From IMG/VR virus record IMGVR_UViG_3300037307_000400: DNA of 64,000 nt; one strand, written 5' to 3'. The DNA comes from a virus. Under the pieces are notes generated by a model, which had not been told where the DNA came from, searched no databases, and worked only from the letters and a program-made list of their open reading frames with translations. Of the stretch, positions 6,694 through 62,404 are shown one piece after another. How positions within the stretch are numbered: position 1 is the stretch's first letter; each line of letters opens with the position of its first letter. Both the position numbers and the translations under genes were made by a program.

Positions 6694-6879
6694 ATGGTCT
6701 ACGAATACCTGTGCAAGCGGTGCGCGCACGAGTGGGAGCAGCACCAGACGACCTCTGAGCCGTGCGACAAGTGCCCCTCGTGCGGCGAGGGCCCCGTGCA
6801 GCGCCTGATCAGCCGGACGTCGTTCGTCCTTCAGGGCGGCGGATGGTACCGCGACGGCTACAGTTCGAGTACGATGTGA
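6694..6879 (+). CDS. FmdB-family zinc-ribbon protein
   Basis: YEYLCKRC..CPSCG..RLIS..FVLQGGGWY..Y; TACAAT at 6679-6684 upstream. Confidence 0.85.
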   Translation: MVYEYLCKRCAHEWEQHQTTSEPCDKCPSCGEGPVQRLISRTSFVLQGGGWYRDGYSSSTM

Positions 6880-6881
6880 CC

Positions 6882-7322
6882 ATGGACGACTACAGCGATC
6901 TGCTCCTGTCAGGCTCCAGCTCCATCTTCGGGAGTGCTGCGAGCGAGGAGTCCCTCGGCGACATCGAAGCGTCAGCGGTGCCTGGTGGCCCGACCATGAG
7001 CGGCCTCGGCGGCCTCGGCGGCCCACCCATGGCGGTTGCCTCCGATGAGCTGCCCGCGCAGACGACGCCTGCCAACGCCTCGCTCGGCGCCGCGATCTCG
7101 TTCTTCACGGTCGCGGCGGGTGCTGCGGTCGGCTACAAGATCAAGCGCTGGAAGGGAGCGCTCGGAGGAGCGCTTCTCGGCGGCGGAGTGCGCAACCTGT
7201 GGCGCGCCCGCACAGCCATCCAAGCAAGCGGACTCGCCCAGAAGGGCGAAGGCATTCAGCAGGGCATGATCGGGCTTGCCGGGGTGGCCGCCGGAATTTA
7301 CCTGCTGATCTCGAAGGAGTGA
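6882..7322 (+). CDS. Membrane protein with SGLGGLGG motif and C-terminal anchor
   Basis: Hydrophobic segments AISFFTVAAGAAVGY and MIGLAGVAAGIYLLI. Confidence 0.65.
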   Translation: MDDYSDLLLSGSSSIFGSAASEESLGDIEASAVPGGPTMSGLGGLGGPPMAVASDELPAQTTPANASLGAAISFFTVAAGAAVGYKIKRWKGALGGALLGGGVRNLWRARTAIQASGLAQKGEGIQQGMIGLAGVAAGIYLLISKE

Positions 7323-7323
7323 C

Positions 7324-7749
7324 ATGTCGAGCAACACAATCGGAATGAAGCAGTACGGGGATCATTTCTCAGACGTCACGTCGGACCTGGGCGGCTACGG
7401 CTCGCTCGGCGGCGCAGGCATCGGCGCGCACGAGCGCACGGAGGCCAAGGTCACGCAGGAAGGCGTGAACCTGCACGCGCACTGCGACAACTGCGGCGTC
7501 CACAACGTGGTGATCGCCGAGTGGCCCGAGCTGGTGTTCATCGCAGAGGGCAAGCTCCCTCCAAATGGCTGGAAGTTCGAGCAAGGGCACGTCCGTACAG
7601 CGATCGGCTGTCGTGGCTGCCGGCGCGAGCTGCCCATCGGCGTCGTGCCGGACGAGGCGGGCAAGTGGGTGCGCGCGGGCGTTTCTGCGCGGTACATCGC
7701 CCCCAACGTAGTGCAGCACCTGGCGTCCCAAGCTCGTGCAGTGCGCTGA
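7324..7749 (+). CDS. Zinc-finger protein (CDNC, CRGC) with N-terminal GSLGG segment
   Basis: SD-like AAGGAG upstream; two CxxC pairs. Confidence 0.65.
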   Translation: MSSNTIGMKQYGDHFSDVTSDLGGYGSLGGAGIGAHERTEAKVTQEGVNLHAHCDNCGVHNVVIAEWPELVFIAEGKLPPNGWKFEQGHVRTAIGCRGCRRELPIGVVPDEAGKWVRAGVSARYIAPNVVQHLASQARAVR

Positions 7750-48341: not shown

Positions 48342-48370
48342 CTTGTACCGGAGTGGTTCTCAGGCGTCAA
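48342..48370 (-). promoter_or_regulatory. Sigma70-type promoter for the RHH gene, likely leaderless
   Basis: TTGACG-17 nt-TACAAG, with the GTG start 6 nt downstream. Confidence 0.65.
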
Positions 48371-48678
48371 GCCGAACGAACGCCCATGCGCGAGAGTTGG
48401 TAGAGCACGAGGCCCGTGAGTACCGCCGTGATTGTACCCGAGATCACAGCGGGCACGACGTCACCCTTCCAGTCGATGCTGGTGCGCGGGGCCTCGCCCT
48501 CTCCGAGCGCGAGCCGGCGCGGGCCCGCGAGCAGCGGGTTCTCGCCCCAGCCCGGAACCGGCGCCGACATCCACCCAGAGCTGCCTGCGTGGAACGGCGA
48601 GTCGGGGACGTAGGTCGAGTAGTAGGGCGTGCGAACGCCCGTGTAGCTGCCCAGGGAGCCGTTGCAGGAGCACGTCAT
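48367..48678 (-). CDS. Tail-anchored virion protein candidate (NGSLGS)
   Basis: MTCSCNGSLGS start; C-terminal TM. Confidence 0.65.
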   Translation of the reverse strand: MTCSCNGSLGSYTGVRTPYYSTYVPDSPFHAGSSGWMSAPVPGWGENPLLAGPRRLALGEGEAPRTSIDWKGDVVPAVISGTITAVLTGLVLYQLSRMGVRSA

Positions 48679-48680
48679 GG

Positions 48681-49459
48681 TCAGGCCTCGAACTCCACGT
48701 CCACGACGCGCGCGAGGAAGCGCACGCCCTGTCCCTGCACGAGCACGCACTGCTGGAGCGCGCCCGTGCCGCCCGTCGTCGGCAGCTCGACCTGGAGCGC
48801 CGCGATCACGACGCCCGAGAAGTCCGGCGCCCACTGCGGGACGCGAACGCGCCGGCCGAAGTTGTTCGGGTCGCCGGGGGCGACCTCGCGCGTCTTGGCT
48901 GGATCGTTGCTGTAGTAGAAGCCCGTCGTGCTCGTCACCGAACTCGGCGCGCCCGCGGAGAAGACCACGGGCCCTCCGCTGAGCACAGGCGTGCCCGCCG
49001 CTGTGTACGCAACGCTCCTGGGAAGGACTGGATCTCCGTCTGTAAGTGCCATTACTCGACCTCCTCAACGTCTGCCGGGAGCGCGATGTACGAAAAGCTC
49101 GGCGTCTTGACGACGACGACCGGCGTCAGCGGGCCCGTGTTGTTGACAGTGCCCAGCTCGAGGTCGAGCTGCTGCACGCAGACGCCTCTGAACTCGGGCG
49201 GCTTGCCCTTGAGTTGCACCGTCCGGCCCTCCAGCCCGGTGCCCGTGTAGAACTCGCACCGTCGCAGACCCTGGGGCGCGAAGCCGCCCGCGGGCCGCCC
49301 CGACGTGCCGTCATTCCAGAGCACCTCTTGGGGTGAGGAGCAGAAAGTTCCGAGGAGTACGCCGTCCGGGCAGAGCGAGCCCACCGTCAGGTCTGCCACA
49401 CCGCCCTCTGCGTTCACGACTGCGGCGGGCGTGACCGTCATTCCATCCGAAAATGCCAT
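48681..49459 (-). other. Two beta-rich putative structural genes (48681-49052, 49052-49459)
   Basis: Coupled ORFs, Val/Thr/Gly-rich alternating strand patterns. Confidence 0.55.
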
Positions 49460-50016
49460 CAGGATTCTCCGTAGATCGTCTTGAGCAGATCATACGCGAT
49501 CTGCACGTCCTTGTACCGCTTTTCGTCGCCCCCGTCACGATCCGGGTGGAACTTCGCCGAGAGCGCGCGGTGCGCCTTGCGAACGTCGTCCCAGCTCGCG
49601 GACTCGTCGACCCCGAGCACGCCCCGGGCCCACCAGGACTTCTTCAGCGCCTCGGCGCGACGGTCGGGGGTCGGCTGCGGGCGCTGCTTGGGCTGCGCGA
49701 CCTTCGAGACGCAGAGGTAGCAGATCAAGTCACCGTTCGAGTCGACGAACGAGTGCTCAAGGCACGCGGGGCGCCGGCACGCGATGCACTGGTCAACGGC
49801 GACCCGCTGGCACGAGCCCACGGGCTGTCCGCCATCGTAGTGCGGGACCTGGCAGGGCATCTGCGCGGCGGCCTGCGGCAGCCACTTGAGCGCGCCGTTC
49901 TGCGCGATCTTAGCCAGCCACGGCTTGAGCTGCTCCCAGAGCAGACCCTGCCCCGTCACTGCGGAGGCGCCGTTGCCCAGCCCGACGAGACTCCCGAGGG
50001 CCTCGAAGGGGAACAT
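49459..50016 (-). CDS. Zn-finger + C-terminal DnaJ-domain protein
   Basis: CxxC..C..H cluster; VLGV..VRKAHRALSAKFHPD..AY..L. Confidence 0.85.
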   Translation of the reverse strand: MFPFEALGSLVGLGNGASAVTGQGLLWEQLKPWLAKIAQNGALKWLPQAAAQMPCQVPHYDGGQPVGSCQRVAVDQCIACRRPACLEHSFVDSNGDLICYLCVSKVAQPKQRPQPTPDRRAEALKKSWWARGVLGVDESASWDDVRKAHRALSAKFHPDRDGGDEKRYKDVQIAYDLLKTIYGES

Positions 50017-50243
50017 CACGCCTTCTTCAGCACCTTGGTGAGCAGGAACGCTCCGCCGCCGAGGATCAGGACGTACTTGAGGGCCGACCACATCGGGCTC
50101 GTGTTCGGAGCGGACGTCGGAGCCGCGTCGCTGCCACAGCCGCAGCCCCCGAGCGAGCCACTGCGCACCACGGCGCCACCGAGGGAGCCATCCTGGTACG
50201 CCGCACCCAACGACCCATCACGAACGCTTGCCAACGTGCTCAT
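50016..50243 (-). CDS. Small tail-anchored protein with three G-SLG repeats
   Basis: DGSLGA, DGSLGG, SGSLGG; C-terminal TM followed by KK. Confidence 0.7.
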   Translation of the reverse strand: MSTLASVRDGSLGAAYQDGSLGGAVVRSGSLGGCGCGSDAAPTSAPNTSPMWSALKYVLILGGGAFLLTKVLKKA

Positions 50244-50443
50244 TTGAAAATTCCCTTCAGACTCGGAGCGTACTTGTTCCCGAGGTAAACGCCAGCCCCG
50301 AGCGCGAGGATGGCCCAGGCCCATGCCGGGATGCCCGCGCGCTGCTCGTCGGGCGACAGCCCGAGGAACGAGAGCGCTACACCCTTGGGGTTCTGCATCG
50401 CCCCCACGCTCGAGAGCATGCCCGTCAAGTCGCTCGGGTTCAT
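50240..50443 (-). CDS. Small membrane protein
   Basis: WAWAILALGAGVYLG followed by a basic tail. Confidence 0.7.
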   Translation of the reverse strand: MNPSDLTGMLSSVGAMQNPKGVALSFLGLSPDEQRAGIPAWAWAILALGAGVYLGNKYAPSLKGIFK

Positions 50444-50452
50444 CTGCCTGCC

Positions 50453-50572
50453 TTACCGCTTTCGGAGAAACCAGAGGGCGAGCGCGAGCACCGCAGCGCC
50501 GATGAGCACCTTGTGAGTCGTGGTGACCTCACCGAGTCCATCGGGAGTCCCTGCCACTGCGAGCGGCCTCAT
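50453..50572 (-). CDS. 39-aa tail-anchored protein missing from the ORF track
   Basis: Manual translation MRPLAVAGTPDGLGEVTTTHKVLIGAAVLALALWFLRKR*; ATG overlaps the upstream TGA. Confidence 0.75.
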   Translation of the reverse strand: MRPLAVAGTPDGLGEVTTTHKVLIGAAVLALALWFLRKR

Positions 50573-50748
50573 CGCTTCCTCATGGTGTAGAAGAGGAACG
50601 CCGCGATGCCGAGGAGGGCCCACGTCATCGGCGCCTTGAAGTCGATGCCGCTCGTGCCCGTTCGCACCAGCGGCTGGCTGCCAGGCACCGCGGGGGTGAC
50701 CGGCGCCATGGTCTGGGGCGAGAAGTAGGCTCCTACACTGCTCTGCAT
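50569..50748 (-). CDS. Small tail-anchored protein
   Basis: SD GAGGA; WALLGIAAFLFYTMRKR. Confidence 0.75.
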   Translation of the reverse strand: MQSSVGAYFSPQTMAPVTPAVPGSQPLVRTGTSGIDFKAPMTWALLGIAAFLFYTMRKR

Positions 50749-50763
50749 GGTGTCCTCACTCAG

Positions 50764-50856
50764 GAAAAAAGCGGCTCGTGGCAGCACCGGGGATCAAAGG
50801 CGTTCTGTTTTTGGGAGAGCAACACAGGAGGAGGAACGCCCCGACTGCCACGAGCC
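50764..50856 (-). terminator. Large stem-loop with U-tract (terminator/attenuator or structured RNA)
   Basis: 12-bp stem GGCTCGTGGCAG / CTGCCACGAGCC enclosing nested stems, followed on the minus strand by GCTTTTTT. Confidence 0.6.
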
Positions 50857-50860
50857 TTAG

Positions 50861-51637
50861 TCAGTAGCTTCCCACAGAAGCCAGGTTGGTCACAATCCTG
50901 TCCGAGAACTGTTCGATCACATTTTTCCCGATCAGGAAGCCTGTGACGTCGACCTCGAAGAACGCGACCGGGAAGGGGATCGGGCGGAAGCAAGCGACCC
51001 GGAAGTTGACCCGCTTGTTCTCGCTGACGAGGTAGGTGAAGGGCATGGTCAGGTGGCTGTCCCGACGATGCCGCTGGGGCAGCGTCGAGAGCCCCGAGGC
51101 CGAGGGCCCCGTCGCCTGCTCGGCGCGCAGGCGCGCGAACACGCTCGGCGCCACACCGCTGATCCCGTCGCCCGGGATCAGACCAGCGTTCTCCGAAGAG
51201 GCGGAGGAGTCCGTCGCGAGCGCCGGGTTGCTCGGCTCGAGCTGGTACTCGATGTTGTCCATCCGCGAGTCGGTGAAGAGGACGTCGTAGCCGACGCTCG
51301 TCGAGAGCCTGCGGTCCTCCAGCTCCTCCGTGTCACCAGGGATGAGCCCGCTCGGGACGTAGATCGCGAAGCGCGTGTCCAGCATCACGAACATCATCTT
51401 CGACGGCACGTCGATGGCGCCCAGCTCGAACGAGAAGGGCCGCTCAGGCGACGCCGTGAGCGTGCCGTCTACCGTGTTGCGGCGGAAGACGCGCTCAAGC
51501 GGCGTGATGTTCTTGGGCGTGATCAGAGTCGAAATCTGATTCCCTGCGAGGTTCACCCGCAGGGCGTCAGTTCCAAACCGCTGAACCCCGACCCCGGCCT
51601 GAGAGAAGGCTGACTCCAGGTTGCTGATCTGGTTCAT
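50861..51637 (-). CDS. Putative jelly-roll-like capsid protein 3
   Basis: Beta-rich; terminal strand FEVDVTGFL; tandem with two similar genes. Confidence 0.5.
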   Translation of the reverse strand: MNQISNLESAFSQAGVGVQRFGTDALRVNLAGNQISTLITPKNITPLERVFRRNTVDGTLTASPERPFSFELGAIDVPSKMMFVMLDTRFAIYVPSGLIPGDTEELEDRRLSTSVGYDVLFTDSRMDNIEYQLEPSNPALATDSSASSENAGLIPGDGISGVAPSVFARLRAEQATGPSASGLSTLPQRHRRDSHLTMPFTYLVSENKRVNFRVACFRPIPFPVAFFEVDVTGFLIGKNVIEQFSDRIVTNLASVGSY

Positions 51638-51661
51638 CGAGAGTCACCCTACCACGAGTGC

Positions 51662-52594
51662 TCAGTAGAACCCAGCACCCGGCGGCTGGATCAGCCGGTA
51701 CCCGTGGAAGCCGATGGTCAGCACGCCCTGGGGCGCGCGGACGATGGGGTCTTCCGTCACCCCGTCGATGTTCGGGTCGCTGATGCCCTCGACGCTGTCC
51801 CACTGCGAGCTGGAGAAGGGGAACAGCGGGTTCGGCGCGCCGAAGCCGAACACGTTGCCGAACGAGGCGTTGTTCGCGTGCGTCGGCAGCACCTTGAACG
51901 TGAGCACCTCGCCACGCTCAAAGAAGTCGAGGGCGCCGAGGTCGAACGGCTCGTTGATGTTGCGGGTCCAGAAGGTGCTCGGCACCTCGATGTTCGAGCG
52001 CGGGTAGCTCGAGCCCGCGTTCTCGAACTTGATGCGGAAGTCGCCTTCCATCGAGCGGAAGGGACTCGCGTTCGCGGGGCTGACGACGTGCGGAGCGCCC
52101 GTGCCGGGGAAGGCCACGCTCTGCGTCACGCACGAGAGCGGCTGCCCGTCGTTGAGGTCCCACGCGCTGTGGATCGGACGGTACCGCCCGAAGCTCCGAC
52201 CGGAGAAGACGGACTTGGCGCCGGTCTGTGGGTCGACGCGCTCGAACTGGTACTGAGACAGGAAGGTCGCGAAACGCGCCGTCGCGATGAACGGACCCTC
52301 CTGGGAGATCTGAATCGTGCCCTGCTGCACGCTGGTGATGTTCGGACCAATCGGGATGTCCACGATGTAGTCGAACGGCACGCGGCGGCCGGGGATGTTC
52401 TCGATCCGCTGAATGCCGGGGCTCTCGCCACCGGATACCTGGACGCGGCTGAGCGCGCTCGACAGGTCGCGGAGTTGCTGCTGCTGGGCCTGAAGCTCCT
52501 GAAGGAGTCGGCCGTTGGTCGCGCGCGAGTTCGCGACTTCCTGCTCGAGCTGCTTGAACTTCGAGAAGATTGCCGCCTGCATGCTGGATTCCAT
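51662..52594 (-). CDS. Putative jelly-roll-like capsid protein 2 with N-terminal coiled coil
   Basis: SD AGAGG before MESS; terminal strand LTIGFHGYR. Confidence 0.55.
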   Translation of the reverse strand: MESSMQAAIFSKFKQLEQEVANSRATNGRLLQELQAQQQQLRDLSSALSRVQVSGGESPGIQRIENIPGRRVPFDYIVDIPIGPNITSVQQGTIQISQEGPFIATARFATFLSQYQFERVDPQTGAKSVFSGRSFGRYRPIHSAWDLNDGQPLSCVTQSVAFPGTGAPHVVSPANASPFRSMEGDFRIKFENAGSSYPRSNIEVPSTFWTRNINEPFDLGALDFFERGEVLTFKVLPTHANNASFGNVFGFGAPNPLFPFSSSQWDSVEGISDPNIDGVTEDPIVRAPQGVLTIGFHGYRLIQPPGAGFY

Positions 52595-52653
52595 GTTCGT
52601 ACCTCTTGCTGAGAGTGCCGGGCTTTGCCCGTTCCGAATTGAGGGGTGCGCTG

Positions 52654-52676
52654 CCCCGGGCACGGCGTGCCCGGGG
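52654..52676. promoter_or_regulatory. GC hairpin downstream of the putative major capsid gene
   Basis: CCCCGGGCAC-GGC-GTGCCCGGGG. Confidence 0.5.
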
Positions 52677-52722
52677 CCCCTGCGCGAGGGTGTGAGTCCC
52701 GGCTACGGGACCCTTGGACTGC

Positions 52723-54231
52723 TCACTGAACGTCGCGGCTGTAGAGGCCATCGAAGGTCATGGTGATGACCTTCTGGATGGCGTCGACGGCGTTGAGGTT
52801 GTCGCGAAGCGACAGCATGTTGCGGCTGCCCTGGCGCGTCTCGAACGTCTGCGCCTGGCCGTTGTCCTCCATCTGGAAGATGCGGAACTTGGCGAGGATG
52901 TTCTGACGCGGGGGGAGCAGCACGGCGCGAGCGAGCTTCAGAATGCTCTGGTGCCCGTCGAAGCCGCTGTTCTGCCAGTGGATGAGGTCCGTCGCACCGG
53001 CCATGTCGCCCGAGAGGCCACCGCCCGCGGGGAAGTACCAGACCGGCATGTTGTCGATGGAGTTCTTCAGGCCGGTGCCGAAGGACAGGTGGAGCTGCTC
53101 CTCGGTCTGCCAGAAGAGACGGTACACGTCCTTGATGGTGCCGGGCGCGTTGCCGACGCCGGGACCGCCAGTGAGCCACGGCGTGAGCGTGCCGTAGTCA
53201 CCGTTGAGGCTGACCTCGCCCGGAGCGCCGCCGGCCTGGCGGAGGATCGGGTTGCGGTACCAAACGAACACGCGCAGAGCGAGCGTGACGTGCGACTGGT
53301 CAGACGGCAGAGTCGAGCCGTTGACGAGGTTGGTGTTCGCCTCGGAGCGGTTTCCGCCGTTGGTGAACAGGTCGATGTTGTCCGACAGGAGGCCGGGCGT
53401 GAGGCCGGCAGTACGAATGAGCGTGTCCCAGACAGATGTTACGCAGGCTGTTTGCACCTGCTCTCCTCGTTTCCAAGGAGTATCGGACTATATCACCGCC
53501 TCAGTGGAACTGAGGCGTCGGGCACTCGTGGGGCGGATTATCGGTGGAACTCACCGCCCTAGTCTCTACACCTTCCGACTCCCATCCCCCCGGAGAGGGG
53601 GTTCCTGAGTCGGCTTGGTTCGGGATTACCTCGCGGAGGATGTCAATCACATCCGCAGGGGCTTCCCCGCCGTTTTTCTTCAGTTGCGACATTGTTCCCA
53701 ACACCGCAACATCGAGTTGTGTCGGACGGTAGCACCGCTCGCGGCAAGCTCTCCTGAGAAACCAAGCTACCACTTCCGCCTCAGTCCGCTTCGCGGTCAG
53801 GTGCGGGAGTAGCGCCTCCGTGATTTTCAGGAGCGCATGCTTCTTCTGGACATGAATCCAGTATTGCCAGCGAGTGGCTCTCTTGCCTTTCCAGACTTTC
53901 CGAACCTTCGGATACTCAACGCCTGCGGCATCGAGGATTTTGGAGATCCGATCAATCATGGACTTGGAGGTGTTGCAGATCACAAGCCAGAGCTGATAGC
54001 TCGTGCGCTTCCCCGGCTGGTACGTCTGACGAATGATCGGACGCTTCAAAGAGAAGCACCCCTCACCGTCTACGATGCCTGCCAGCCAGGCTAGATCTGT
54101 TTCAGCAACCAACGACATACTCTCAAAAAACAGTTTGATTCACCCGATTCTCACCCCCAGATCACTCTGAGGGGCCGCCCTTAGGCCGACGGCTGATGAA
54201 CGCGCTCGCGCACGGTAACGATCTTCGGCAT
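52723..54231 (-). CDS. Putative major capsid protein, split: join(54231..54189, 53432..52723), 250 aa
   Basis: Splicing gives MPKIVTVRERVHQP-F-WDTLIRTAG in frame. SD AAGGA and a structured leader upstream; beta-rich with terminal strand ITMTFDGLY. Capsid function is inference. Confidence 0.7.
53433..54188 (-). ncRNA. Group I self-splicing intron (756 nt)
   Basis: 5' exon ends in U, with P1 GCCGU/GCGGC and a U.G pair. P3 UCGGGU/GCCCGA; P- and Q-like elements GCGGGGAAGCC and AAUCCCGAACCAAG; R GUAGAGACUAG; S GAUAUAGUCC; terminal G. Confidence 0.92.
53501..54118 (-). CDS. Intron-encoded single-motif LAGLIDADG homing endonuclease
   Basis: LAWLAGIVDGEGCF; its C-terminus is read through the intron core. 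Confidence 0.9.
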   Translation of the reverse strand: MSLVAETDLAWLAGIVDGEGCFSLKRPIIRQTYQPGKRTSYQLWLVICNTSKSMIDRISKILDAAGVEYPKVRKVWKGKRATRWQYWIHVQKKHALLKITEALLPHLTAKRTEAEVVAWFLRRACRERCYRPTQLDVAVLGTMSQLKKNGGEAPADVIDILREVIPNQADSGTPSPGGWESEGVETRAVSSTDNPPHECPTPQFH

Positions 54232-54396
54232 AACTTTCTACTTTTCCTTGGGTTACCGAGTTTTAGGAGGCTTGGTTCCTCCACGACCCGAGAGGCCCAG
54301 AAATTGGACCCCTTCAACGCCCTGTGCCCAGGCCCCCGCGAAGGGGCTCTGGGCTGGGGCGGGCCATTCGAGTGGCCCTCGAGCTAGCGTCTCAGC

Positions 54397-56100
54397 TCAG
54401 CCGAAGACGCCCTGCCCTCCGCCGGCAGACAGGATGCCCGCCGGGATCTGCGCCGTGGCCATCTGCGACTGATCGATCGGACGAACGCCAGCCCAGATCG
54501 CAGGATTGGACTCACCGGGGATCCAGGTCTGCGAGGTGGCGACCGAACTCACGGTGTTACCGAGGCCAGCCGCCGCCTGAAAAGGGCCCATCGCGCCGAC
54601 CCCCGCGGCAGCCTCTGCGATGCTCAGCTCGCGGTCGAGGTTGCTCATGGGGTTGATGTGGTTGGAGTTCGAGGACTCCAGCGCACCGAACCCAGCAGCC
54701 GCCTGGTACATGTCGGGGTTCGCCTCATAGGCGCCCACGCCACTGCCGAAGTACTCGCCCATGCCAGCCTGCGCTTCGTAAGGCGCAGCGCCGAGGCCGC
54801 TCACGCCGCTGCCGAAGTACTCGCCGACACCGCTGCCGAAGTACTCACCGATGGGCGAGTACATGGGCATGATGTTCGAGCCGACACCGTACATGGCCGA
54901 GAGGCGCGCCGCGGTCGAGTCCGAGCCGAGGCCCGAAATCTGTCCGGCGTACTTGGCCGTGCTGGCGTTGGCCTTGAGCACGTCGATGACCAGCGTGTGG
55001 ACGAACGACGCGACCATGCCGCCCGCGATGAGCTTGCGCTGATCGGCGTTCTTGACGTACTTCAGGGTCAGGTAGACGCCCAGAGCCGCCGTGACGCCGC
55101 CGCTGATCGTGCCCGAGTACTTGGAGAGCGACGCCGGGAGCAGGCCGAGGCCAGCCGCCGCCTTCGCATCCGCGGCAGGAGACTCCGCAGCGGACACAAC
55201 CGAGCCCTTGCTGTTCAGCAGGTTCTTCACGAGGCCCGTGAGCAGCTTGTGCCCGATCAGGCCCATGCCGACGAGCGCGCCGGTCTTCAGCCACTCAGTG
55301 GCCAGGCCAGCGATGCCGTTGCGCCGGAAGATCCTGCGCAGCGGGTTGCGACGCATCGCGCGACGGTTCCGACGCGGGGCCGCACGCCGGGTGCGCTTGT
55401 TGCGACGCGGAGCCGCGCGACGCACGCTCCGGCTGCGACGAATGCTCCGGTTGCGGCGCGGGGCTGCGCGACGAGCACGCTTGTTGCGACGAGGCGCCGC
55501 ACGACGCCGCCGACTACGGTTCGGCGTGACGATCTTACGCGAAGTGCGCTTGGGCGCAGCAGCCTTGCGCGCGGAGCGCTTGGTCGTCTTCGCCTTGCTG
55601 CGCGTCTTGGAGACACGACGCTTGGCCGTTGCGGGGCGCGCCGACTTGCGAGCCTTCTTGCTGCGCTTCTTGCGCTCTGCCTTGGGCAGAAGACCGAGCC
55701 GCGTCTTCCAGCCCCGCTTGCCCGCCTTGCTGTGCTTTGGCCGAACGTAGACGGTGATCTTCCGCTTGACCTTCTTCTCAGCGTAATTGCTGCGGACGCG
55801 CCGCAGACGAGAAAGACTCCTACGCATTTCACTACTCCTTGGATTTGAGTGTACGAGTCGGCCGGACGAAGAGCCGCCGGACCGCCCAACGACGCGCTCG
55901 ACGGCTGCGACAGCCGCTGCACGCCTCTTCGCTGGGCTGATGCCCAACATCTCCGACCGGGCGCTGTTACGCCGGTAGGACCCTCTCCCGTTGATCGCTG
56001 CGATGGTGCGGACGCCAGGGTTGTTCCGAACGTGTCGGTACGCCTTGACGTCTTCGCGGGAGATCCGCCTCACACTTACAGTCGGTCGTCGAACGGGCAT
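54397..56100 (-). CDS. Arg/Lys-rich core (DNA-condensing-like) protein with membrane segments and GEYFGSG repeats
   Basis: RRAAPRRN repeats, then hydrophobic helices, three GEYFGSG and several xGLGx motifs; start at MPVRRP. Confidence 0.75.
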   Translation of the reverse strand: MPVRRPTVSVRRISREDVKAYRHVRNNPGVRTIAAINGRGSYRRNSARSEMLGISPAKRRAAAVAAVERVVGRSGGSSSGRLVHSNPRSSEMRRSLSRLRRVRSNYAEKKVKRKITVYVRPKHSKAGKRGWKTRLGLLPKAERKKRSKKARKSARPATAKRRVSKTRSKAKTTKRSARKAAAPKRTSRKIVTPNRSRRRRAAPRRNKRARRAAPRRNRSIRRSRSVRRAAPRRNKRTRRAAPRRNRRAMRRNPLRRIFRRNGIAGLATEWLKTGALVGMGLIGHKLLTGLVKNLLNSKGSVVSAAESPAADAKAAAGLGLLPASLSKYSGTISGGVTAALGVYLTLKYVKNADQRKLIAGGMVASFVHTLVIDVLKANASTAKYAGQISGLGSDSTAARLSAMYGVGSNIMPMYSPIGEYFGSGVGEYFGSGVSGLGAAPYEAQAGMGEYFGSGVGAYEANPDMYQAAAGFGALESSNSNHINPMSNLDRELSIAEAAAGVGAMGPFQAAAGLGNTVSSVATSQTWIPGESNPAIWAGVRPIDQSQMATAQIPAGILSAGGGQGVFG

Positions 56101-56230
56101 AGCTGTCCACTCTTCGCAGAGCGGCAGTCTCCCCGGTGAGCGACTGTCCGGTACGGGATGCTCAGGAAGATAGAGTGAGCTTCCGCGCCCGTCAAACAAA
56201 TTCTAGTGCAACTGCACTAAGCAGACTTAG

Positions 56231-57274
56231 TCAGCCTACGATGCCGTCCTTCAGGACGTTGAGCTTGCTGCCCGTCACGACGGCCACGACACCTTGCGAG
56301 TCGTAGACCACGAGGAACGTCTTACCGTCCTTGAATTTGCCGGCGCCGAGCGTGCAGCGCGGCCACTTCAGGTCGACGAACTCACCGAGGGACTTGCCTC
56401 GAGCATCGGTGAAGAGCTGCGCCTGGATCGAGATGAACTTCGCGAGCACCGCGAACGAGTCGGGGAACTTCCCCTTCATGCTGACCTGCGGGCCCATGAG
56501 CTTGAGCCCGTCTCCGCGCGCGATGGTGCCGGGCACGACGAAGAGCTGTTGCGGGCCCTCCTTGACGTGCTTGTAGTCGAAGGCCTTGCCGTCCTTCTGC
56601 CACTTGTCGGAGTTGTACATCACCGCCTCGCACTTCCCGATCTCTTGCAGGGTGCTCGGCCACTCCCAGCCAGGCGTCCACTTCCTGCGATGCGGCTCGT
56701 CGCGGAAGTTCTCGCGGATCTTGATCGACTGCTCGAGCGACGAGCGCTCCGTGCCGTTGCGCACGACAGACCTGGACTTGGCGATCAACTCTCGCGCCTG
56801 CGCGATCAGCTCGTTCGCCCTGGCCAGCGATGTCACCAACTGCAAGGTTCCTCGTGCCGCACCAGGAGATCCGGCCATGAGTTCAAGGCAGACTCGCATT
56901 CCAAGTCCGTAGTACTCATGGTCTGGCCCGTGCGTGGCAATCTCTTTGTCGGTGACGCGCTCGAGGTACGCCTTGGACTTGCCTTCCTGGCGAAGCCGCG
57001 CAATCTCCGCAACGCCGCGCAGAATTTCTGACTCGATGAACTCGGGCCCCACTTCCCGCCAAGGACTTCGAGCGTTCGAGCGCACGACGCCTTCGGACTT
57101 CTGCCATGCGGCCTTCGCCCGCCGGAAGCTCTGCTTGGCTTCCTCGAGGCGGTTGCAGCACGCGAGCCCGATCCCCTCGGACTCATAATCCCAGTGCGGG
57201 CAGTCCTCTTCCGCGTAGTTCAGCTCCTGCCGGGCCTTCTGAAGCGCAATCAGTGGGGTGTGTCGCATCGTCAA
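56231..57274 (-). CDS. Modular hypothetical protein, probable core-associated
   Basis: Three segments separated by VVRSN and VVRNG; C-terminal YNSDKW..DYKH..LNVLKDGIVG domain. Confidence 0.65.
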   Translation of the reverse strand: MTMRHTPLIALQKARQELNYAEEDCPHWDYESEGIGLACCNRLEEAKQSFRRAKAAWQKSEGVVRSNARSPWREVGPEFIESEILRGVAEIARLRQEGKSKAYLERVTDKEIATHGPDHEYYGLGMRVCLELMAGSPGAARGTLQLVTSLARANELIAQARELIAKSRSVVRNGTERSSLEQSIKIRENFRDEPHRRKWTPGWEWPSTLQEIGKCEAVMYNSDKWQKDGKAFDYKHVKEGPQQLFVVPGTIARGDGLKLMGPQVSMKGKFPDSFAVLAKFISIQAQLFTDARGKSLGEFVDLKWPRCTLGAGKFKDGKTFLVVYDSQGVVAVVTGSKLNVLKDGIVG

Positions 57275-57591
57275 CTCCTGAGCACCTTGCCCGCGAGCGT
57301 ACCAAAGCTCTTGGACACGTTCCGCAGGTACTTGCGCTCCTCGCTCGACAGGGACGACTCGGAGCGCACGTCCTCGTCCAGGTCGTTTGCGAGATCCATC
57401 AGGTACCGAAACAGCGCCTCGCGGTCATCCGGGTGCGTCGGAAGCAACATCTCGCCGCGCCGCGTATCGACAAGCGAGAGGAACAGCTCTGTCTCGGGCG
57501 GATCGAACTCCGGGTCGAACCCGTCCATGAGTTCCACCTCGATGTAGCTGAGCACGCTCTCAGACAGGCGCACGCGATCTCGAGCACTCAC
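57271..57591 (-). CDS. Acidic hypothetical protein
   Basis: Coupled ORF. Confidence 0.55.
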   Translation of the reverse strand: MSARDRVRLSESVLSYIEVELMDGFDPEFDPPETELFLSLVDTRRGEMLLPTHPDDREALFRYLMDLANDLDEDVRSESSLSSEERKYLRNVSKSFGTLAGKVLRS

Positions 57592-57905
57592 AACACCCTC
57601 CGCTTCGTGAGGTACCAGCCCGCGCCGAGCCCGACCGCGATCCAGAGCGCCCAGCTCGGCACGAGGCTCGTCAGGCTGCCCAGCATGCCCCGAGACATCG
57701 GCACGATGGCTCCTCGAGCGAGGACGCCCGAGCCGACGTAGCGCGCGCCAGAGGGGGCGTCACGGCCCGCCTGCAAGCTCGCTACGCCGATGGCGCTCGT
57801 CTGCGAGAGCACGGGCTTGGGCAGGTCGTCGCCGAGCGCGACGTCCCGGCCGCCTTCGAGGTAGTCGTAGCCACCCTTCACGGGGTTCCAGCGGCTGTAG
57901 ATCAT
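57588..57905 (-). CDS. Tail-anchored protein
   Basis: MIYSRWNP start; GMLGS; WALWIAVGLGAGWYLTKRR. Confidence 0.7.
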   Translation of the reverse strand: MIYSRWNPVKGGYDYLEGGRDVALGDDLPKPVLSQTSAIGVASLQAGRDAPSGARYVGSGVLARGAIVPMSRGMLGSLTSLVPSWALWIAVGLGAGWYLTKRRVL

Positions 57906-58855
57906 GCCGAGCGCTCCTTCTGGATCGTCCGCGCGACCCCGAACACCTGCCGCACGAGGAACGGCGCGAACATCACCCCGAGCACGACCAGGCCACCGAA
58001 CACGAGGGCCTTCGTGATGCCGCCTGCAATCGCAGCCATGTCCCACGTCGGCAACTTCGAGAGGGCCGACTCGGTGCAAGCCAGGCGCGCCTTCTGGTCG
58101 GTGAACGTCGAGCACTGCTCGGCGATGATCTTGTTGACCGTCGAGATCTGGTACATCGCCACGATCACCATGGCTGCCGCGGCAATCGCAGCCACGCCAA
58201 GGATCGCGATGACGCCCGCGGGCAGCGCGCCCACGCCGCTGCGGCTCTGCTTGGCGCGGTCGAGGTAGCCGTTGCGGTCGAGGTTGCCGATGGCGAGCAG
58301 ACCATCACGCACGGCGCTCGCGTGGTACTGGAGGGCCTTCTCCGCGTTCGAGATCAAGAGCACGGCGCGGTCTTGGGTGATGCGCTTGCCCTGGACCTCC
58401 TTGGCCATCCGAGCCTCGACCGTGCGCAGGAACGCCGTGGCTGCGCCCGAGACGTGAAGGTTGTAGCCGTACTCCAGGTGCTTGAACGCGGTGCCGACGA
58501 AGATCACGAGCACGTCCGCCACGACGTTCATGCCGCCGCCCGAGAACGTCTCCCACGCGATGGTCCCCGCGCTCTTGGTCTTGTCCCAGAAGCCCTTCGT
58601 CGAGTCGAACATCTGCTTGGCAGCGTCCGTCGCAGCGTGCGAGGAGATTGCCTCGGGCCGGAAGTCGAGCGCGGTGAACGCTCGCAGGGCCTGGTCGTAG
58701 GGCCCGTACATGTAGCTCTGGTAGTTCGAGCGCACGCCGACCTGACCCCAAGGGATCGGCGCGGCGCCCTCGAAGTAGTTGATGAGATCGAAGATCCAGG
58801 GGTTGTCGATGCGGAACGACTCGACCTGGCGCTCGAGTTCGGCGACGGTCGCCAC
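57902..58855 (-). CDS. Multi-pass membrane protein
   Basis: Three hydrophobic segments, the last near the C-terminus. Confidence 0.7.
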   Translation of the reverse strand: MATVAELERQVESFRIDNPWIFDLINYFEGAAPIPWGQVGVRSNYQSYMYGPYDQALRAFTALDFRPEAISSHAATDAAKQMFDSTKGFWDKTKSAGTIAWETFSGGGMNVVADVLVIFVGTAFKHLEYGYNLHVSGAATAFLRTVEARMAKEVQGKRITQDRAVLLISNAEKALQYHASAVRDGLLAIGNLDRNGYLDRAKQSRSGVGALPAGVIAILGVAAIAAAAMVIVAMYQISTVNKIIAEQCSTFTDQKARLACTESALSKLPTWDMAAIAGGITKALVFGGLVVLGVMFAPFLVRQVFGVARTIQKERSA

Positions 58856-58858
58856 GGC

Positions 58859-59131
58859 TCAGCCCTTCCGCTTGCTGGCCTTGTAGGCGACGAAGCCGAG
58901 AGCAAGCCCGCCGAGGACGTAGCCCCACGTCGGCACCTGCCGCAGCGCGACCTTCACGTCGTCCATCGTGCCTCGGAGCGTGTTGTCCTGAAAGTAGCCC
59001 TCGTCGTAGGGGCTGCGGAAGTGCGCGACGCTCCAGTACGACCGGCCCGCGGGGCTCGCACCGAGTCCCTGGAGGTAGTGCGCACCGTCGAACGGCGCCT
59101 GGTAGTCCGAGATTCCAACGTAGCGTCGCAT
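58859..59131 (-). CDS. Small tail-anchored protein (QGLGA)
   Basis: WGYVLGGLALGFVAYKASKRK. Confidence 0.75.
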   Translation of the reverse strand: MRRYVGISDYQAPFDGAHYLQGLGASPAGRSYWSVAHFRSPYDEGYFQDNTLRGTMDDVKVALRQVPTWGYVLGGLALGFVAYKASKRKG

Positions 59132-59134
59132 GGT

Positions 59135-59869
59135 TCAGCGCTTCTTCTTGTAGAGGTAGTAGCCGACGCCGGCCGCGAGGAGAGCCCCCGCGCCGATCAC
59201 GAGCCAGGAGGTCGTGCTGCTCGAGCTGGTCTGGTACGCCACGGGCGGGGCCACCGGGCTCGGCCGCGGCACCACGGCGGGCGTCGGTGCGGGAGCAGGC
59301 GCGCCCGGCGCCGTGCTCGCGAGCGAGAGCGTCCGGCCCGCGCACGCGCGAGGCATGACCCAGTCCGGGCGCTGCTTGCTGTCGATGACAGCCTTGATGC
59401 CGCCGCACGTCTTGCCGCCGAGCTTGCCGTCCGTCGAGAGCGTCTCGAGCTGCATCTTGGGCAACAGGTCGTTGGCCGCGTACTGCACGTCCTTGGTCGC
59501 GAGGGAGAACGTGCCCCACGGCAGCCCGATCATGCCCTCCATGCTCGAGACACTGGTCGTCGCGGCGCCACAGTACTCCGAGATGCACTTCTGCAAGTTC
59601 TCGGCCCAGATCGCGTTGAACGAGTCGGTCCACTCCGTCGTGCCCGGCCCGTAGTTGATGTCGCCCTTGCTCTTGAGCAGGTTCAGGAAGTCGTTCGCCT
59701 GCTGGTTCGCCTGCTCGCTGCACCCCTTGAAGCCGAACTGGTCCCAGCACGTCGCGGGCACCTTCGCGAACGGGTCGACGGCGCCGAGCGCGCCGAGCCC
59801 CGCGACCGTCGTCGCGAAGATCCCCTCGCCGTTGCCAGACGCCCCGAAAATTCCGTGTCGCGTGTGCAT
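59135..59869 (-). CDS. Tail-anchored protein (AGLGALGA) with Pro/Ala stalk
   Basis: MHTRHGIFG start; WLVIGAGALLAAGVGYYLYKKKR. Confidence 0.75.
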   Translation of the reverse strand: MHTRHGIFGASGNGEGIFATTVAGLGALGAVDPFAKVPATCWDQFGFKGCSEQANQQANDFLNLLKSKGDINYGPGTTEWTDSFNAIWAENLQKCISEYCGAATTSVSSMEGMIGLPWGTFSLATKDVQYAANDLLPKMQLETLSTDGKLGGKTCGGIKAVIDSKQRPDWVMPRACAGRTLSLASTAPGAPAPAPTPAVVPRPSPVAPPVAYQTSSSSTTSWLVIGAGALLAAGVGYYLYKKKR

Positions 59870-60660
59870 CACTTCCTCATGAAATAGAACGCCGCGAGTC
59901 CCGCGACGGCAACGGCTCCGAGCACCAGAGGGCCCACCTTCGAGGACTCCTTCGGGATGGCCGGCATGTCCGCAGGAACCTCGGCCGGCGTGCTTGAGGT
60001 CACGGGAGCGGCGACCTGGACCTGCGAGGTCACAGGGGCCTGCCTCGAGCCCTTGAGCTGCCGGATGAAGGTGTTCACCTGCATGCTCACGGTCTGGTTC
60101 TGCATGGCCGCCGAGCACGTCTTGCTGGCCTCTGCGACCACGTCACTCGGGGCCTCGGCGAGCAGGTCCTCCTTGTGGTCCGTCGAGCAGACCAGAAGCG
60201 CCCCGCACGTCGTCGCGTCGAGCTTGCCCGTCACCGAGACGGCGAGCTTGTAGCCGTTCGCCGAGAGCACCTTGTTCAGCGCCGTCTGGAGCGTCGACAC
60301 CTTGGTGTTCGTCGCAGCCGCCAGGTAGTAGATTGCGGTGCCGGTCGCGCCGAGCCCGAGCGAGCCACCTGCGAGCGTGCCGAGGCCCGCTGTGTCCGCG
60401 TAGAACTCGTGGAAGTCGTCGGGCTTGAACACCGCGTGCGGCGCGGGCACGAACGGCAGGCCGAACACCGGGCGCGTGTAGATCGCCCCGTGAAAGCGCG
60501 TGGGGTACGGATGGACGTGCGCGGTGTAGGGGTTGATCACCCCACGCTGGCTCATGTTGCTCGGCATGGCTTCTCCAAGAGCGCCCACGGGCTTGTACTG
60601 GTACTTCGCGCCCACGGGCATGAGGTACCCCGGGTACACTGAGGTCGCGTAGACGTTCAC
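59869..60660 (-). CDS. Tail-anchored protein with possible peptidoglycan-binding-like domain
   Basis: GALGE, AGLGT; 'VSTLQTALN..GY..VTGKLDATT' resembles PG_binding_1; C-terminal TM. Confidence 0.7.
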   Translation of the reverse strand: MNVYATSVYPGYLMPVGAKYQYKPVGALGEAMPSNMSQRGVINPYTAHVHPYPTRFHGAIYTRPVFGLPFVPAPHAVFKPDDFHEFYADTAGLGTLAGGSLGLGATGTAIYYLAAATNTKVSTLQTALNKVLSANGYKLAVSVTGKLDATTCGALLVCSTDHKEDLLAEAPSDVVAEASKTCSAAMQNQTVSMQVNTFIRQLKGSRQAPVTSQVQVAAPVTSSTPAEVPADMPAIPKESSKVGPLVLGAVAVAGLAAFYFMRK

Positions 60661-61313
60661 CGGCTCGCGTCCTTCCGGGCCATGTAGACGAGCCCGAGCG
60701 CCCCGAGGCCGAGCAACAGGACCGAGAGCGTCCGCATGCCCGGGTTCTGGTCGGCGACCGTCTCCGAGAGCGGCACGGCGTTCTGCATCACGTTCACGGT
60801 ACTCACGCGCCGCGCGTGCCTGGTCGCGAGCCCCACCTGCGCCTGCGGGCGCTTGTAGAGGCCGCCCTCGAGGAACGCGATCTGCGCCGCGCTGTCGTTC
60901 GCCACGGCGCCCGAGGGCACCGCTCGGATCGGACGACCCGTGGTGATGTCGATCTCCTCCGAGAAGCCGAACGGCACCTCGCGCGCGTGCATGCCGGGCA
61001 GCGAGTAGTTGACCGAGAAGACGCCCGCTCCGGGGTGGACGTTCTTCTGCGTGTTCGGCGGGTCGAAGATCCCGTCACCCTGCACGTCGTCCATCTCGGC
61101 CAGCACACGAAGTTCGTTGAGTGCGTACTCGGGTTCCATCGGACTCTCACTGCTCCCCAGACCGGCGAGGTACCGGCCGTGCATGTTGTTCAGGCGCGCC
61201 GCGTAGTACGGGCCCGTGCTCGAGGTCGGACGCAGGTCCGGCGGGCCCATCTGCACCATGGAGGGCACGCGGCCCGTGTTGGGCTGGCTCGGGTAGATCG
61301 GGTAACGGGGCAT
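60657..61313 (-). CDS. Tail-anchored protein (AGLGS)
   Basis: LSVLLLGLGALGLVYMARK; TAGGAT 6 nt upstream of ATG. Confidence 0.7.
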   Translation of the reverse strand: MPRYPIYPSQPNTGRVPSMVQMGPPDLRPTSSTGPYYAARLNNMHGRYLAGLGSSESPMEPEYALNELRVLAEMDDVQGDGIFDPPNTQKNVHPGAGVFSVNYSLPGMHAREVPFGFSEEIDITTGRPIRAVPSGAVANDSAAQIAFLEGGLYKRPQAQVGLATRHARRVSTVNVMQNAVPLSETVADQNPGMRTLSVLLLGLGALGLVYMARKDASR

Positions 61314-61327
61314 CGCTGAATCCTACA

Positions 61328-62404
61328 TCACTTTCGCTTGGCCAGGTAGTAGAGGCTCCCGCCCGCAGCGAGCACGAGCAGCCACATCGCCCCGGACCCA
61401 GCAAACATGCTCCCCGGGTCGCAGGTCGGCGCCACGGGCTTGGTCGGCATCCCCGCAGGAAGCAGGGTGCAGTTCGGAGGCTGCGCGGGCTGCACGGGCC
61501 GGACCTCGCAGCCCGGCGCGGTCGGGGGCGTCGGCGAGCAGGTCGGGCGCGCGCCCACCTGCGGCACCTGCTTGCCCGCAGCCCACTGCTCCCACGTCGG
61601 GATCGGGGTCGGGCTCTCGAGCGTCGGCCGCGGGGGCGCCGCCAGGTACTGCGGCGCGGGCGGCGGGGCGTCCGGTCGCAGTACGGTCGCCGGCAGCGTC
61701 GGGCACGCGGGCATGTGCCGCCAATGACACTTGGTCGAGTCCGGCAGGTTCCCCAGCCCCTTGACCACAGTACATTCCAGGTTCCAGCGATCCTTGTTCG
61801 CCTGCGAAATGCAGTCGAACGAGTGGCCGCCCATGAACGTGCGCGGGTAGTTGTCGTAGTCCCGCAGGTACGGGAGTCGATCCTGCGTCTCTTTCCAGCG
61901 GAGTGCGATCTGGTCCCGCTTTGACTGCACCTCGGCGTCGTAGGCCTGCCAGCGAGCAAGCGCCGCCTGGTAGGCGAGCACCTTCGAGGCGTAGGTCGCG
62001 CGAAGCGCGGTGTTCGTCTGCGTGACCTTGTCGACCTCCGACTGCCACGCCGCGAGCGTCGCCTGGTTCTGCCGGGTCAGGTTCGCGTTGCGGGCCTCGA
62101 GCGTGTCGACCAGATCTCGGTACTCGGCCTGGAGCGCCTGCACCTGCCGGCTCGCGGCAGACCACGCGCTCACCTGCACCGCGCAGGCGTCGGCCTCTCG
62201 CTTCAGGGTCGTGTAGCGGCTGCGCTCTGCCTCGCAGCTCGCATTCGACTGGCCCACGCGCTCCTGCTCAGCAAGCAGGCGTTGGTAGGCCTCCTTCGCA
62301 GATGCGCACTCAGCGTTCTGCTGAAGGGCCTGTTCATAGGCGCGCAGGGAAGCTGCATAGTGCTCATGGAGCTTCTGGCACTGCGTCTGTCCCAGAGCAT
62401 TCAC
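61328..62404 (-). CDS. Coiled-coil, Cys/Pro-rich tail-anchored protein
   Basis: GTG overlaps upstream TGA; MWLLVLAAGGSLYYLAKRK. Confidence 0.7.
   Translation of the reverse strand: MNALGQTQCQKLHEHYAASLRAYEQALQQNAECASAKEAYQRLLAEQERVGQSNASCEAERSRYTTLKREADACAVQVSAWSAASRQVQALQAEYRDLVDTLEARNANLTRQNQATLAAWQSEVDKVTQTNTALRATYASKVLAYQAALARWQAYDAEVQSKRDQIALRWKETQDRLPYLRDYDNYPRTFMGGHSFDCISQANKDRWNLECTVVKGLGNLPDSTKCHWRHMPACPTLPATVLRPDAPPPAPQYLAAPPRPTLESPTPIPTWEQWAAGKQVPQVGARPTCSPTPPTAPGCEVRPVQPAQPPNCTLLPAGMPTKPVAPTCDPGSMFAGSGAMWLLVLAAGGSLYYLAKRK

Follow-up and report, generated by a model that had tools for sequence, protein, structure and literature searches.

The adenovirus protease AVP (adenain) cleaves pVI, pVII, pIIIa and other precursors at sites of the form (M/I/L)-X-G-G↓X and (M/I/L)-X-G-X↓G, and the N-terminal peptide of pVI, which docks in hexon, is also cut off. 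The capsid targeting sequence (CTS) of bacteriophage T4, which is carried by internal proteins, both docks and is removed by the prohead protease gp21. How membrane-containing tailless phages choose the proteins of their internal membrane and tie them to the capsid is poorly understood. One such virus is the Salisaeta phage SSIP-1, which is tailless and icosahedral, with an internal membrane and two types of capsid protein (PMC6356626). LapG is a proven, sequence-specific transglutaminase-like endoprotease whose target is a small-residue (di-alanine) site close to the N-terminus of its substrate (PMC10990149). Here we report on a 64,000-nucleotide stretch of viral DNA (IMG/VR record IMGVR_UViG_3300037307_000400; the window), in which a short G-L-G signal recurs on the membrane proteins of a morphogenesis module headed by a gene for a transglutaminase-like enzyme.

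By descent, the closest characterized relative of this enzyme is SSIP-1 gp34 and, by function, it is LapG. The phage protein gp34, annotated as structural, is a homolog of the enzyme family (hhalign 97.9%, E 4e-13), with DCD, H and D in register. Moreover, SSIP-1 ORF36, gp37, ORF52 and gp53 have leader-like G-L/M-G N-termini, and gp37 (..VNR-GLG-AGFQPN) and gp53 (..SDP-GMG-SVTAAI) are structural. SSIP-1 differs from the window virus, however, in its 43.8-kb genome and in the C-terminal membrane anchor of gp34. LapG and the BTLCP family (PMC10990149, PMC3032545) share the fold and the Cys-His-Asp triad of the window enzyme, although LapG-like structures are only 14-18% identical to it in structural alignments. 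In addition, LapG is periplasmic, calcium-dependent, regulated by LapD and specific for one substrate class, whereas the window enzyme is viral, apparently cytoplasmic, and has many candidate substrates.

The AVP system, that of a jelly-roll-lineage virus, resembles the window system in that unrelated virion precursors share a short Gly motif, with a hydrophobic residue at position -2 from its first Gly, and in that a virion Cys enzyme is encoded alongside; a Gly consensus common to several putative precursors is found here as hydrophobic-x-G-L-G in at least 15 families. AVP has a clan CE fold, however, whereas the fold here is that of transglutaminases, the carriers are mostly tail-anchored (TA) membrane proteins, that is, proteins ending in a single transmembrane (TM) helix and a Lys/Arg tail, the Leu is strict, and cleavage is putative. 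The T4 CTS is likewise a short N-terminal leader common to unrelated particle proteins, which it brings into the forming particle, and it ends in a protease site, but T4 is a tailed, HK97-fold phage in which gp21, a serine protease cutting after L/I-X-E, acts on soluble cargo. No gp21-type serine protease was found among the approximately 30 of about 100 window proteins that were scanned against Pfam and PHROGs. Because the protease fold differs, the window system is a member of neither the adenovirus nor the T4 maturation system, although it would work in a similar manner. Finally, the terminal TM helix, the basic tail and the short signature on unrelated proteins recall the sortase and exosortase signals (LPXTG, PEP-CTERM, MYXO-CTERM). 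Here, however, the signature is mostly far from the anchor, and the module has no sortase or exosortase; a sortase-type C-terminal sorting signal was rejected because the motif is N-terminal.

The G-L-G signal on module membrane proteins

An earlier note on this DNA had pointed to a (G/A/S)-L-G motif shared by the module's membrane proteins as a candidate maturation cleavage signal. All of the motifs that it listed are present in the genes to which it assigned them (Table 1), including outliers near 7002-7019, 7402 and 16634. Some of its details required correction: the supposed three copies of DGSLG at 50016 are two DGSLG and one SGSLG (50016-50243), and several coordinates given as starts are the 3' ends of minus-strand open reading frames (ORFs). 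In addition, the mechanical ORFs 48367-49068, 50016-50324, 57588-58115 and 59135-60118 extend upstream of the true starts, which, like the gene order, we took from codon-usage gene calling.

Enrichment was assessed in the window by 5000 within-protein shuffles with TM helices left out. The 14 membrane proteins of the module contain 10 copies of GLG when 1.36 are expected, and 19 copies of [GAS]LG when 4.34 are expected; neither count was reached in any shuffle (0/5000). No enrichment is seen in the 78 other window proteins, for which the corresponding counts are 9 (9.6 expected) and 21 (27.5 expected). The signal is carried for the most part by G-L-G and G-S-L-G, whereas [AS]LG alone is weaker (9 in the window, 2.9 expected, and about 2-fold in relatives). 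The note had also cautioned that Gly and Leu are simply common in a GC-rich proteome. Although the G+C content of the window is 62-69%, this caveat is refuted because GAG, GSG, GGG, GPG and the other GxG tripeptides are not enriched in the window.

The finding is replicated in a set of 43 non-redundant related loci, the TA proteins of which contain 206 copies of GLG (41.9 expected; Poisson p = 2.5e-73; this significance, like the counts from these loci, is inflated by their shared ancestry). Other GxG tripeptides in these relatives are mostly near 1x, with GGG and GFG at about 2x, GMG at 1.7x, GVG at 1.3x, GSG at 1.0x and GAG at 0.56x. When all tripeptides were screened without bias, GLG ranked first in TA proteins (195 copies, 35.5 expected); the start signature MSY came next, and after it LGA, GSL/SLG, EYF and G[VI]F. 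Of 19 BLAST-unrelated TA families, 15 have the motif in half or more of the member proteins; of 10 non-TA families, only one does, that of the core protein 54397 (module proteins are named by the first coordinate in Table 1). The control phages PRD1 and P23-77 show no GLG enrichment. It is true that Gly, Leu and Ala are common and that some instances, such as [AS]LG and motifs within TM helices, are unremarkable singly. Nevertheless, the shuffling result, the unenriched remainder of the window proteome, the replication in 43 loci and the first rank of GLG in the unbiased screen leave a negligible probability that the motif is a chance product of a Gly/Leu/Ala-rich, GC-rich proteome. The signal on the membrane proteins of the virus morphogenesis module is real and selected, and we hold with high confidence that GLG is a selected recognition signal.

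The motif is concentrated near the N-terminus, with 7-14 copies of GLG per 1000 residues up to residue 60 but only about 1 past residue 120; it falls within the first 30 residues of 98 of 325 TA proteins, compared to 25 of 381 others. The description of the motif as usually lying behind a short N-terminal piece containing aromatic residues is supported. Among 334 distinct GLG sites, position -3 is A/G/S/P, position -2 is L/V/I/M in 164 (49%; 65.5 expected) and almost never charged, and position -1 is A/S/N. On the other side, position +1 is A/E/G and never Pro (0/334; 22.6 expected), position +2 is Y/A/D, and position +3 is P/A/F/G. Pro is present at +1 of GAG, GSG and GGG sites at the expected level or higher, and at +1 of GVG sites in 4 cases (8.3 expected). 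The full element consists of Met, a small residue and Tyr/Phe, then 0-25 residues, then [A/G/S/P]-[L/V/I/M]-[A/S/N]-G-L-G, and then A/E/G. Common N-termini are M-F-Y-GLG-Q, M-Y-GLG-Q, M-S-Y-Q-GLG, MRGS-GLG-A and MSY followed by GLG after 10-20 residues; tandem units also occur, with AYYKNxYNQxINGLG present twice and EYF..GLG three to four times. At least 15 unrelated TA families carry this leader in their N-terminal portion, which faces the cytoplasm; it is also borne by the membrane-embedded core protein.

The beginning of the leader has a wider distribution. The start M[AST][YF] is found in 53 TA proteins (4.7 expected). In related loci L001-L075 and L076-L083, TA proteins have the start signature M-[S/A/T]-Y, and residue 3 is Tyr in 65 of 325 TA proteins of the close clade. 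Window examples of the signature are 57588-57905 (MIY) and 58859-59131 (MRRY). In a distant second clade, residue 3 is Tyr in 20 of 44 TA proteins but in only 1 of 108 other proteins, and a looser hydrophobic-Gly-Asp element lies downstream (MGD, 14 against 1.2 expected). The start signature is older and more widespread than GLG.

A second motif, G-x-G-[I/V]-F, is enriched 8.8-fold in the TA proteins of relatives (21 against 2.4 expected) and is often found 5-10 residues ahead of GLG (GGGVFDGNLAGLGA). Its co-enrichment, together with that of EYF and GGG, and the disordered appearance of these regions would suit a structural element that has no specific reader, be it a flexible Gly hinge or a matrix of sticky, low-complexity aromatic/Gly stretches lying between capsid and membrane, or else a signal recognized by a host factor. 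We regard this explanation as improbable given the strict requirement for Leu, evident from the values for GAG, GSG and GVG above, the position-specific flanks and the strong N-terminal bias.

The transglutaminase-like enzyme and its intein

The protein at the head of the operon matches the Pfam families Transglut_core, Intein_splicing, Hint and LAGLIDADG_3, in each case under the curated cut-off. Its PF01841 score is 22.2 bits (cut-off 23) because an intein splits the domain; most intein-free homologs have a precomputed PF01841 match. BLASTP against a 177-residue homolog aligns the window protein in two pieces, residues 8-103 with homolog residues 8-103 (..VGD) and residues 402-475 with homolog residues 104-177 (CDD..), which identifies residues 104-401 as an intein. 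This segment starts with Cys and ends with Asn, is followed by Cys, has weak Pfam matches to Intein_splicing, Hint and LAGLIDADG_3, and is absent from homologs of 150-216 residues. The +1 residue of the intein, Cys402, is also the catalytic Cys. Intein-free homologs of 150-216 residues are encoded in all five of the large viral genomes examined, and at least 120 protein-database clusters contain homologs, most with PF01841. The intein of this transglutaminase-like gene appears to be uncommon as judged from these sequences, being absent from the five large relatives and from at least 120 clusters of 97-310 residues, a length range that lies below longer, intein-bearing forms.

All 32 homologs aligned have C104, H137 and D154, the window equivalents of which lie in GD-C(402)DD, YSHVF and CDPVA. 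An AF2 model of a homolog (pLDDT 91) has a papain-like transglutaminase core fold, and Foldseek matches it with probability 1.00 to 3isr (a putative cysteine protease), LapG (4fgq, 4u65), PNGase, Rad4 and the phage pseudomurein isopeptidases PeiW and PeiP. Matches in AFDB include PNGases and UPF0252; transglutaminases and N-acetyltransferases match more weakly, and no clan CE (adenain/Ulp1-like) structures are present among these fold matches. On the basis of the predicted fold, the enzyme is a member of the transglutaminase-like superfamily. This assignment excludes the enzyme as a relative of adenain, I7 or pS273R. The interpretation given in the earlier note is supported in part, as regards a selected motif and an operon-leading, transglutaminase-fold Cys-His-Asp enzyme, but not as regards a protease of the adenovirus, poxvirus or African swine fever virus (ASFV) kind. 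The activity of the enzyme as a protease, its action on GLG sites and the position of the cut are all putative.

The presence of transglutaminases, arylamine N-acetyltransferases and amide synthases in the fold family (structural ranks 30-49) raises a different possibility, namely that an acyl intermediate formed at G-L-G is transferred to an amine on capsid, lipid or protein in the manner of a sortase, or that a true transglutaminase or acyltransferase acts on the leaders. The motif is indeed short and Gly-rich, as sorting signals are. Such transpeptidation or cross-linking is nevertheless very unlikely, since the motif has no conserved Gln or Lys and is N-terminal rather than beside the anchor, and since the best structural neighbors of the enzyme are hydrolases. 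We also considered whether the enzyme is a cell-wall endopeptidase, which is unlikely because peptidoglycan hydrolysis is covered by other genes, an SLT-domain TA protein and an Amidase_2 endolysin being already present.

Possible docking and cleavage at the leader

We tentatively favor, with rather less than even confidence, a reading in which the leader targets proteins to the particle and the transglutaminase-fold enzyme cuts at GLG. A short linear signal for assembly would then be built around G-L-G, and the leader would carry each protein to the assembling particle. There, the Cys-His-Asp enzyme would cut at G-L-G with Leu at P2, Gly at P1 and no Pro at P1'; in the window, the enzyme would become active only once its intein has been spliced out. 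This maturation step would be comparable to those of adenovirus pVI with AVP or of the T4 CTS with gp21. Leu at P2 would suit the S2 pocket of a papain-like enzyme.

Support for cleavage is provided by the exclusion of Pro at +1, which fits a scissile bond, and by the sequence after GLG, which resembles a protein start: [AEST][YF] comes next in 40 cases (5.7 expected), much as TA proteins themselves begin with M[AST][YF]. It is also provided by a natural experiment in the family of 48367, where the window protein reads MTCSCNGSLG↓SY.. and most homologs begin directly with MSY.. (9-13 sequences; family 12, with 9 homologs at the motif boundary). The DNA leaves no doubt about the ATG of the 48367 leader. 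When homologs starting exactly after the motif were sought systematically, this was the one clean case; the apparent boundary starts in family 9 were rejected as misaligned, unrelated neighbors. Cleavage is favored, in addition, because a conserved Cys-His-Asp enzyme, with a gp34 homolog annotated as structural, heads the operon, and the enzyme gene leads the TA operon in both clades.

Several observations weigh against this reading. SSIP-1 encodes the enzyme yet shows no statistical GLG enrichment overall, and GLG is likewise not enriched in the distant clade, even though the enzyme and the M-x-Y start are kept there. Co-occurrence cannot discriminate, because every motif-bearing lineage examined also has the enzyme. 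Moreover, the fold neighbors of the enzyme include proteases, amidases, isopeptidases, acyltransferases and proteins that are not enzymes. Conservation is often highest in the leader, and leaders occur in tandem, as in the 58859 family and family 10, which suggests that they have a function of their own and suits a docking module no less well than a disposable propeptide. Some leaders are only 2-5 residues long (MYGLG, MFYGLG), which is odd for a propeptide, and information content is about equal on either side of GLG. A predicted complex of the enzyme with the first 66 residues of a 58859-family leader scored 0.00, and we counted this result neither for nor against cleavage.

The conserved and repeated leaders, the very short leaders and the balanced information content would suit a docking or targeting signal that is not cleaved, in which the aromatic residues and hydrophobic-x-G-L-G would insert in a pocket of a capsid, scaffold or other assembly protein. 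Such a signal would sort TA proteins to the virion membrane patch and tie membrane to shell, with tandem copies adding avidity and the enzyme acting elsewhere. The 58859 family has two repeat units, family 10 has AYY...GLG once or twice, and the core protein has arrays of GEYF/GLG; the very short leaders (MYGLGQ) and the rough symmetry of information around GLG are also in keeping with docking, and the J-domain protein bears the motif too, as expected for recruitment to one site. The short Gly/Leu anchor peptides that act as cargo signals in encapsulins offer a precedent. Docking alone does not predict a Pro-free +1 position or a start-like sequence after GLG, although Pro could be kept out by a bound beta-strand as well; it does not account for the MTCSCNGSLG↓SY case, and the conserved virion Cys-His-Asp enzyme that heads the operon would have no role in it. 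We consider docking without cleavage to be a serious if doubtful alternative, nearly as likely as the reading with cleavage. The two readings are compatible, as the pVI and T4 CTS leaders, which do both, illustrate.

In its broadest form, our proposal is that, in an uncultured and very widespread lineage of large, tailless phages with a membrane, one leader code (M-small-Tyr ... hydrophobic-x-G-L-G↓not-Pro) loads dozens of unrelated TA proteins into the virion membrane and has them trimmed by a transglutaminase-fold cysteine protease of the virion. Such a maturation system would have an origin independent of adenain, I7 and gp21, and would be the first known for a bacterial virus that acts on membrane proteins of the virion, a possibility that we put forward with considerable doubt.

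Organization of the module and the virus group

According to codon-usage calling, the module is a single minus-strand operon (63831 -> 48367). The 476-residue transglutaminase-like protein with its intein is followed by a run of TA proteins (61328, 60657, 59869, 59135, 58859, 57588), and then by the multi-pass membrane protein 57902, the soluble protein 56231 and the basic core protein 54397. The capsid candidates 52723, 51662 and 50861 come next, the first being split by a LAGLIDADG-bearing insertion, followed by four tiny membrane proteins (50569, 50453, 50240, 50016), the J-domain protein 49459, two small soluble proteins and a final TA protein, 48367.

Table 1. Coordinates of features in the window
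Feature	Coordinates	Strand	Details	Basis
Transglutaminase-like Cys-His-Asp enzyme	62401..63831	-	exteins aa 1-103 and 402-476	Pfam, alignment, AF2 model of homolog
Intein	62629..63522	-	aa 104-401 (CFPEG...VSN), LAGLIDADG-like domain	BLASTP against intein-free homolog
TA protein	61328..62404	-	coiled coil, Pro-rich, C-terminal TM and basic tail; NALGQ 62390-62398, KGLGN 61751-61759	
TA protein	60657..61313	-	RYLAGLGSS with AGLGS 61155-61163	
TA protein	59869..60660	-	GALGE 60574-60582, AGLGT 60379-60387, GSLGLG 60349-60366	
TA protein	59135..59872	-	N-terminal GEGIF, then AGLGALGA 59783-59800	
TA protein	58859..59131	-	two leader-like repeats; HYLQGLGAS with QGLGA 59060-59068	
Multi-pass membrane protein of module	57902..58855	-		
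TA protein, highly conserved	57588..57905	-	MIYSRWRPD..GLGDDLP..; VALGDD 57831-57839, GMLGS 57678-57686 adjoining TM	27-member alignment
Core-type protein	54397..56100	-	Arg/Lys-rich N-terminal half, membrane segments, C-terminal domain with GEYF repeats; GLG/GMG at 55144, 54925 (SGLGS), 54790 (SGLGA), 54757, 54559 (AGLGN)	
Three capsid candidates	50861..54231	-	50861-51637; 51662-52597; 52723-53457 + exon 54190-54231; no leader motif	
39-aa TA protein	50453..50572	-	PDGLGEV with PDGLGE 50531-50539	
75-aa membrane protein	50016..50243	-	G-S-L-G x3 (50205-50216, 50178-50189, 50148-50159), then GCGCG	
J-domain (DnaJ) protein	49459..50019	-	N-terminus MFPFEALGSLVGLGNG at 49975-50001	Pfam DnaJ 1.6e-9
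TA protein	48367..48678	-	10-aa leader MTCSCNGSLG ahead of SYTG; NGSLGS 48649-48660	
Two motif proteins outside operon	6843..7749	+	MSGLGGLGGPP (7002-7019), GGYGSLGGAG (7402-7410)	
G-x-G-[I/V]-F motifs	61065-61079, 61017-61031, 59816-59830, 54403-54417		first two in 60657..61313; last is the conserved core-protein C-terminus GGGQGVFG	

Homologs of individual module proteins show how the motif is placed. In homologs of 60657 the motif column reads R-x-L-A-G-(LG/SD/VD/TD), and in those of 59869 a conserved HPYPTRFHG domain precedes the GLG column, which is followed by GGG[IV]F...LAGLGA. The alignment of the 58859 family has R3, P14 and G22 invariant and G24 nearly so, with the unit Y..S.FRAP[YF]D..L.GLG present twice. 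The window copy of 57902 has no extramembrane GLG, whereas its homologs have GLG right before the first TM helix. A G-L-x-G motif adjoins the TM helix only in the 57588 family.

The core protein contains three GEYFGSG repeats (54748-54849). EYF (71 against 3.7 expected) and GEY (88 against 10.0) are the most enriched tripeptides in the non-TA module proteins of relatives, where they usually lie inside G-[L/M/I/V]-G-E-Y-F. The J-domain protein has a Cys-rich middle (CxxC..C..C) and is kept in the module of all close relatives; its N-terminus in the window contains ALGSLVGLG. An element of the form (D)GKLGxxTCGA recurs in 59135-59872, in 59869-60660 and in the homologs from loci L063 and L074, and TA proteins have a 7-fold excess of TCG. 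The element, which has no Pfam match, looks like a small peptidoglycan-binding-type repeat of the ectodomains. Outside the module, the minus-strand gene at 9408-10094 encodes a TA protein in which Pfam identifies an SLT lytic transglycosylase domain (1.3e-10) and which has G-M-G at residue 26; in role it is similar to P7, the virion-associated transglycosylase of PRD1.

Elsewhere in the window are genes for an SNF2 helicase, a tyrosine integrase, the Amidase_2 endolysin, glycosyltransferases and the membrane-anchored SLT transglycosylase, a gene set consistent with a bacterial virus or prophage; no tRNA genes were found in the window. Searches of a phage collection gave no match for the window DNA, nor for the module or one capsid candidate at the DNA and protein levels, and Pfam and PHROGs gave no matches for the capsid candidates or TA proteins. 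Homologs of the capsid candidates (54-82% identity) are present on about 60 metagenomic contigs and also on IMG/VR contigs of 95-179 kb, several of which have direct terminal repeats and are rated complete. Viral contigs of 80-180 kb carry homologs with 57-74% identity. The distant clade, with about 30% capsid identity, is represented by contigs of 55-89 kb, some of them binned with metagenome-assembled genomes of Gemmatimonadota, Myxococcales and Thermomicrobiales.

The AF2 model of the 250-residue capsid candidate is of moderate quality (pLDDT 67); the highest-ranking of its matches, which are weak, are to jelly-roll capsid proteins from SPV1, an iridovirus and PBCV-1 and a 211-residue viral entry. 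Profile comparison of a capsid candidate with SSIP-1 gp46 revealed no sequence similarity. In the best conserved candidate, the segment 53501-54118 lies between the exon and the remainder of the gene. Homologs start with MAK.VS(I/V)RERVHQPF(W/Y)DTL, whereas the window ORF starts with ..VWDTLIR; the absent start, MPKIVTVRERVHQP, is encoded approximately 0.75 kb upstream, past the LAGLIDADG ORF. This arrangement fits an intron with a homing endonuclease. The virus belongs to a large-genome (about 95-180 kb), uncultured group related to SSIP-1. Judging from this relationship and the weak jelly-roll matches of the capsid candidates, it is probably a bacterial virus that contains a membrane and lacks a tail. 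A literature search found no description of the GLG motif or of the large-genome clade.

One sequence code that extends over at least 15 unrelated families would provide a directly testable handle on the selection of virion membrane proteins, strengthened by the adjacent, conserved Cys-His-Asp enzyme, the SSIP-1 homolog of which is an annotated structural protein. The leaders are open to mutation and transplantation, and the enzyme to assay. For a large group of viruses from soil and sediment, whose virion membrane proteins have no known function, the motif also offers a practical marker for the annotation of these proteins. If cleavage does take place, bacterial jelly-roll viruses would join adenovirus, poxvirus and ASFV in proteolytic maturation at Gly motifs, with a different protease fold, and a new branch of transglutaminase-like proteases would have its specificity defined.

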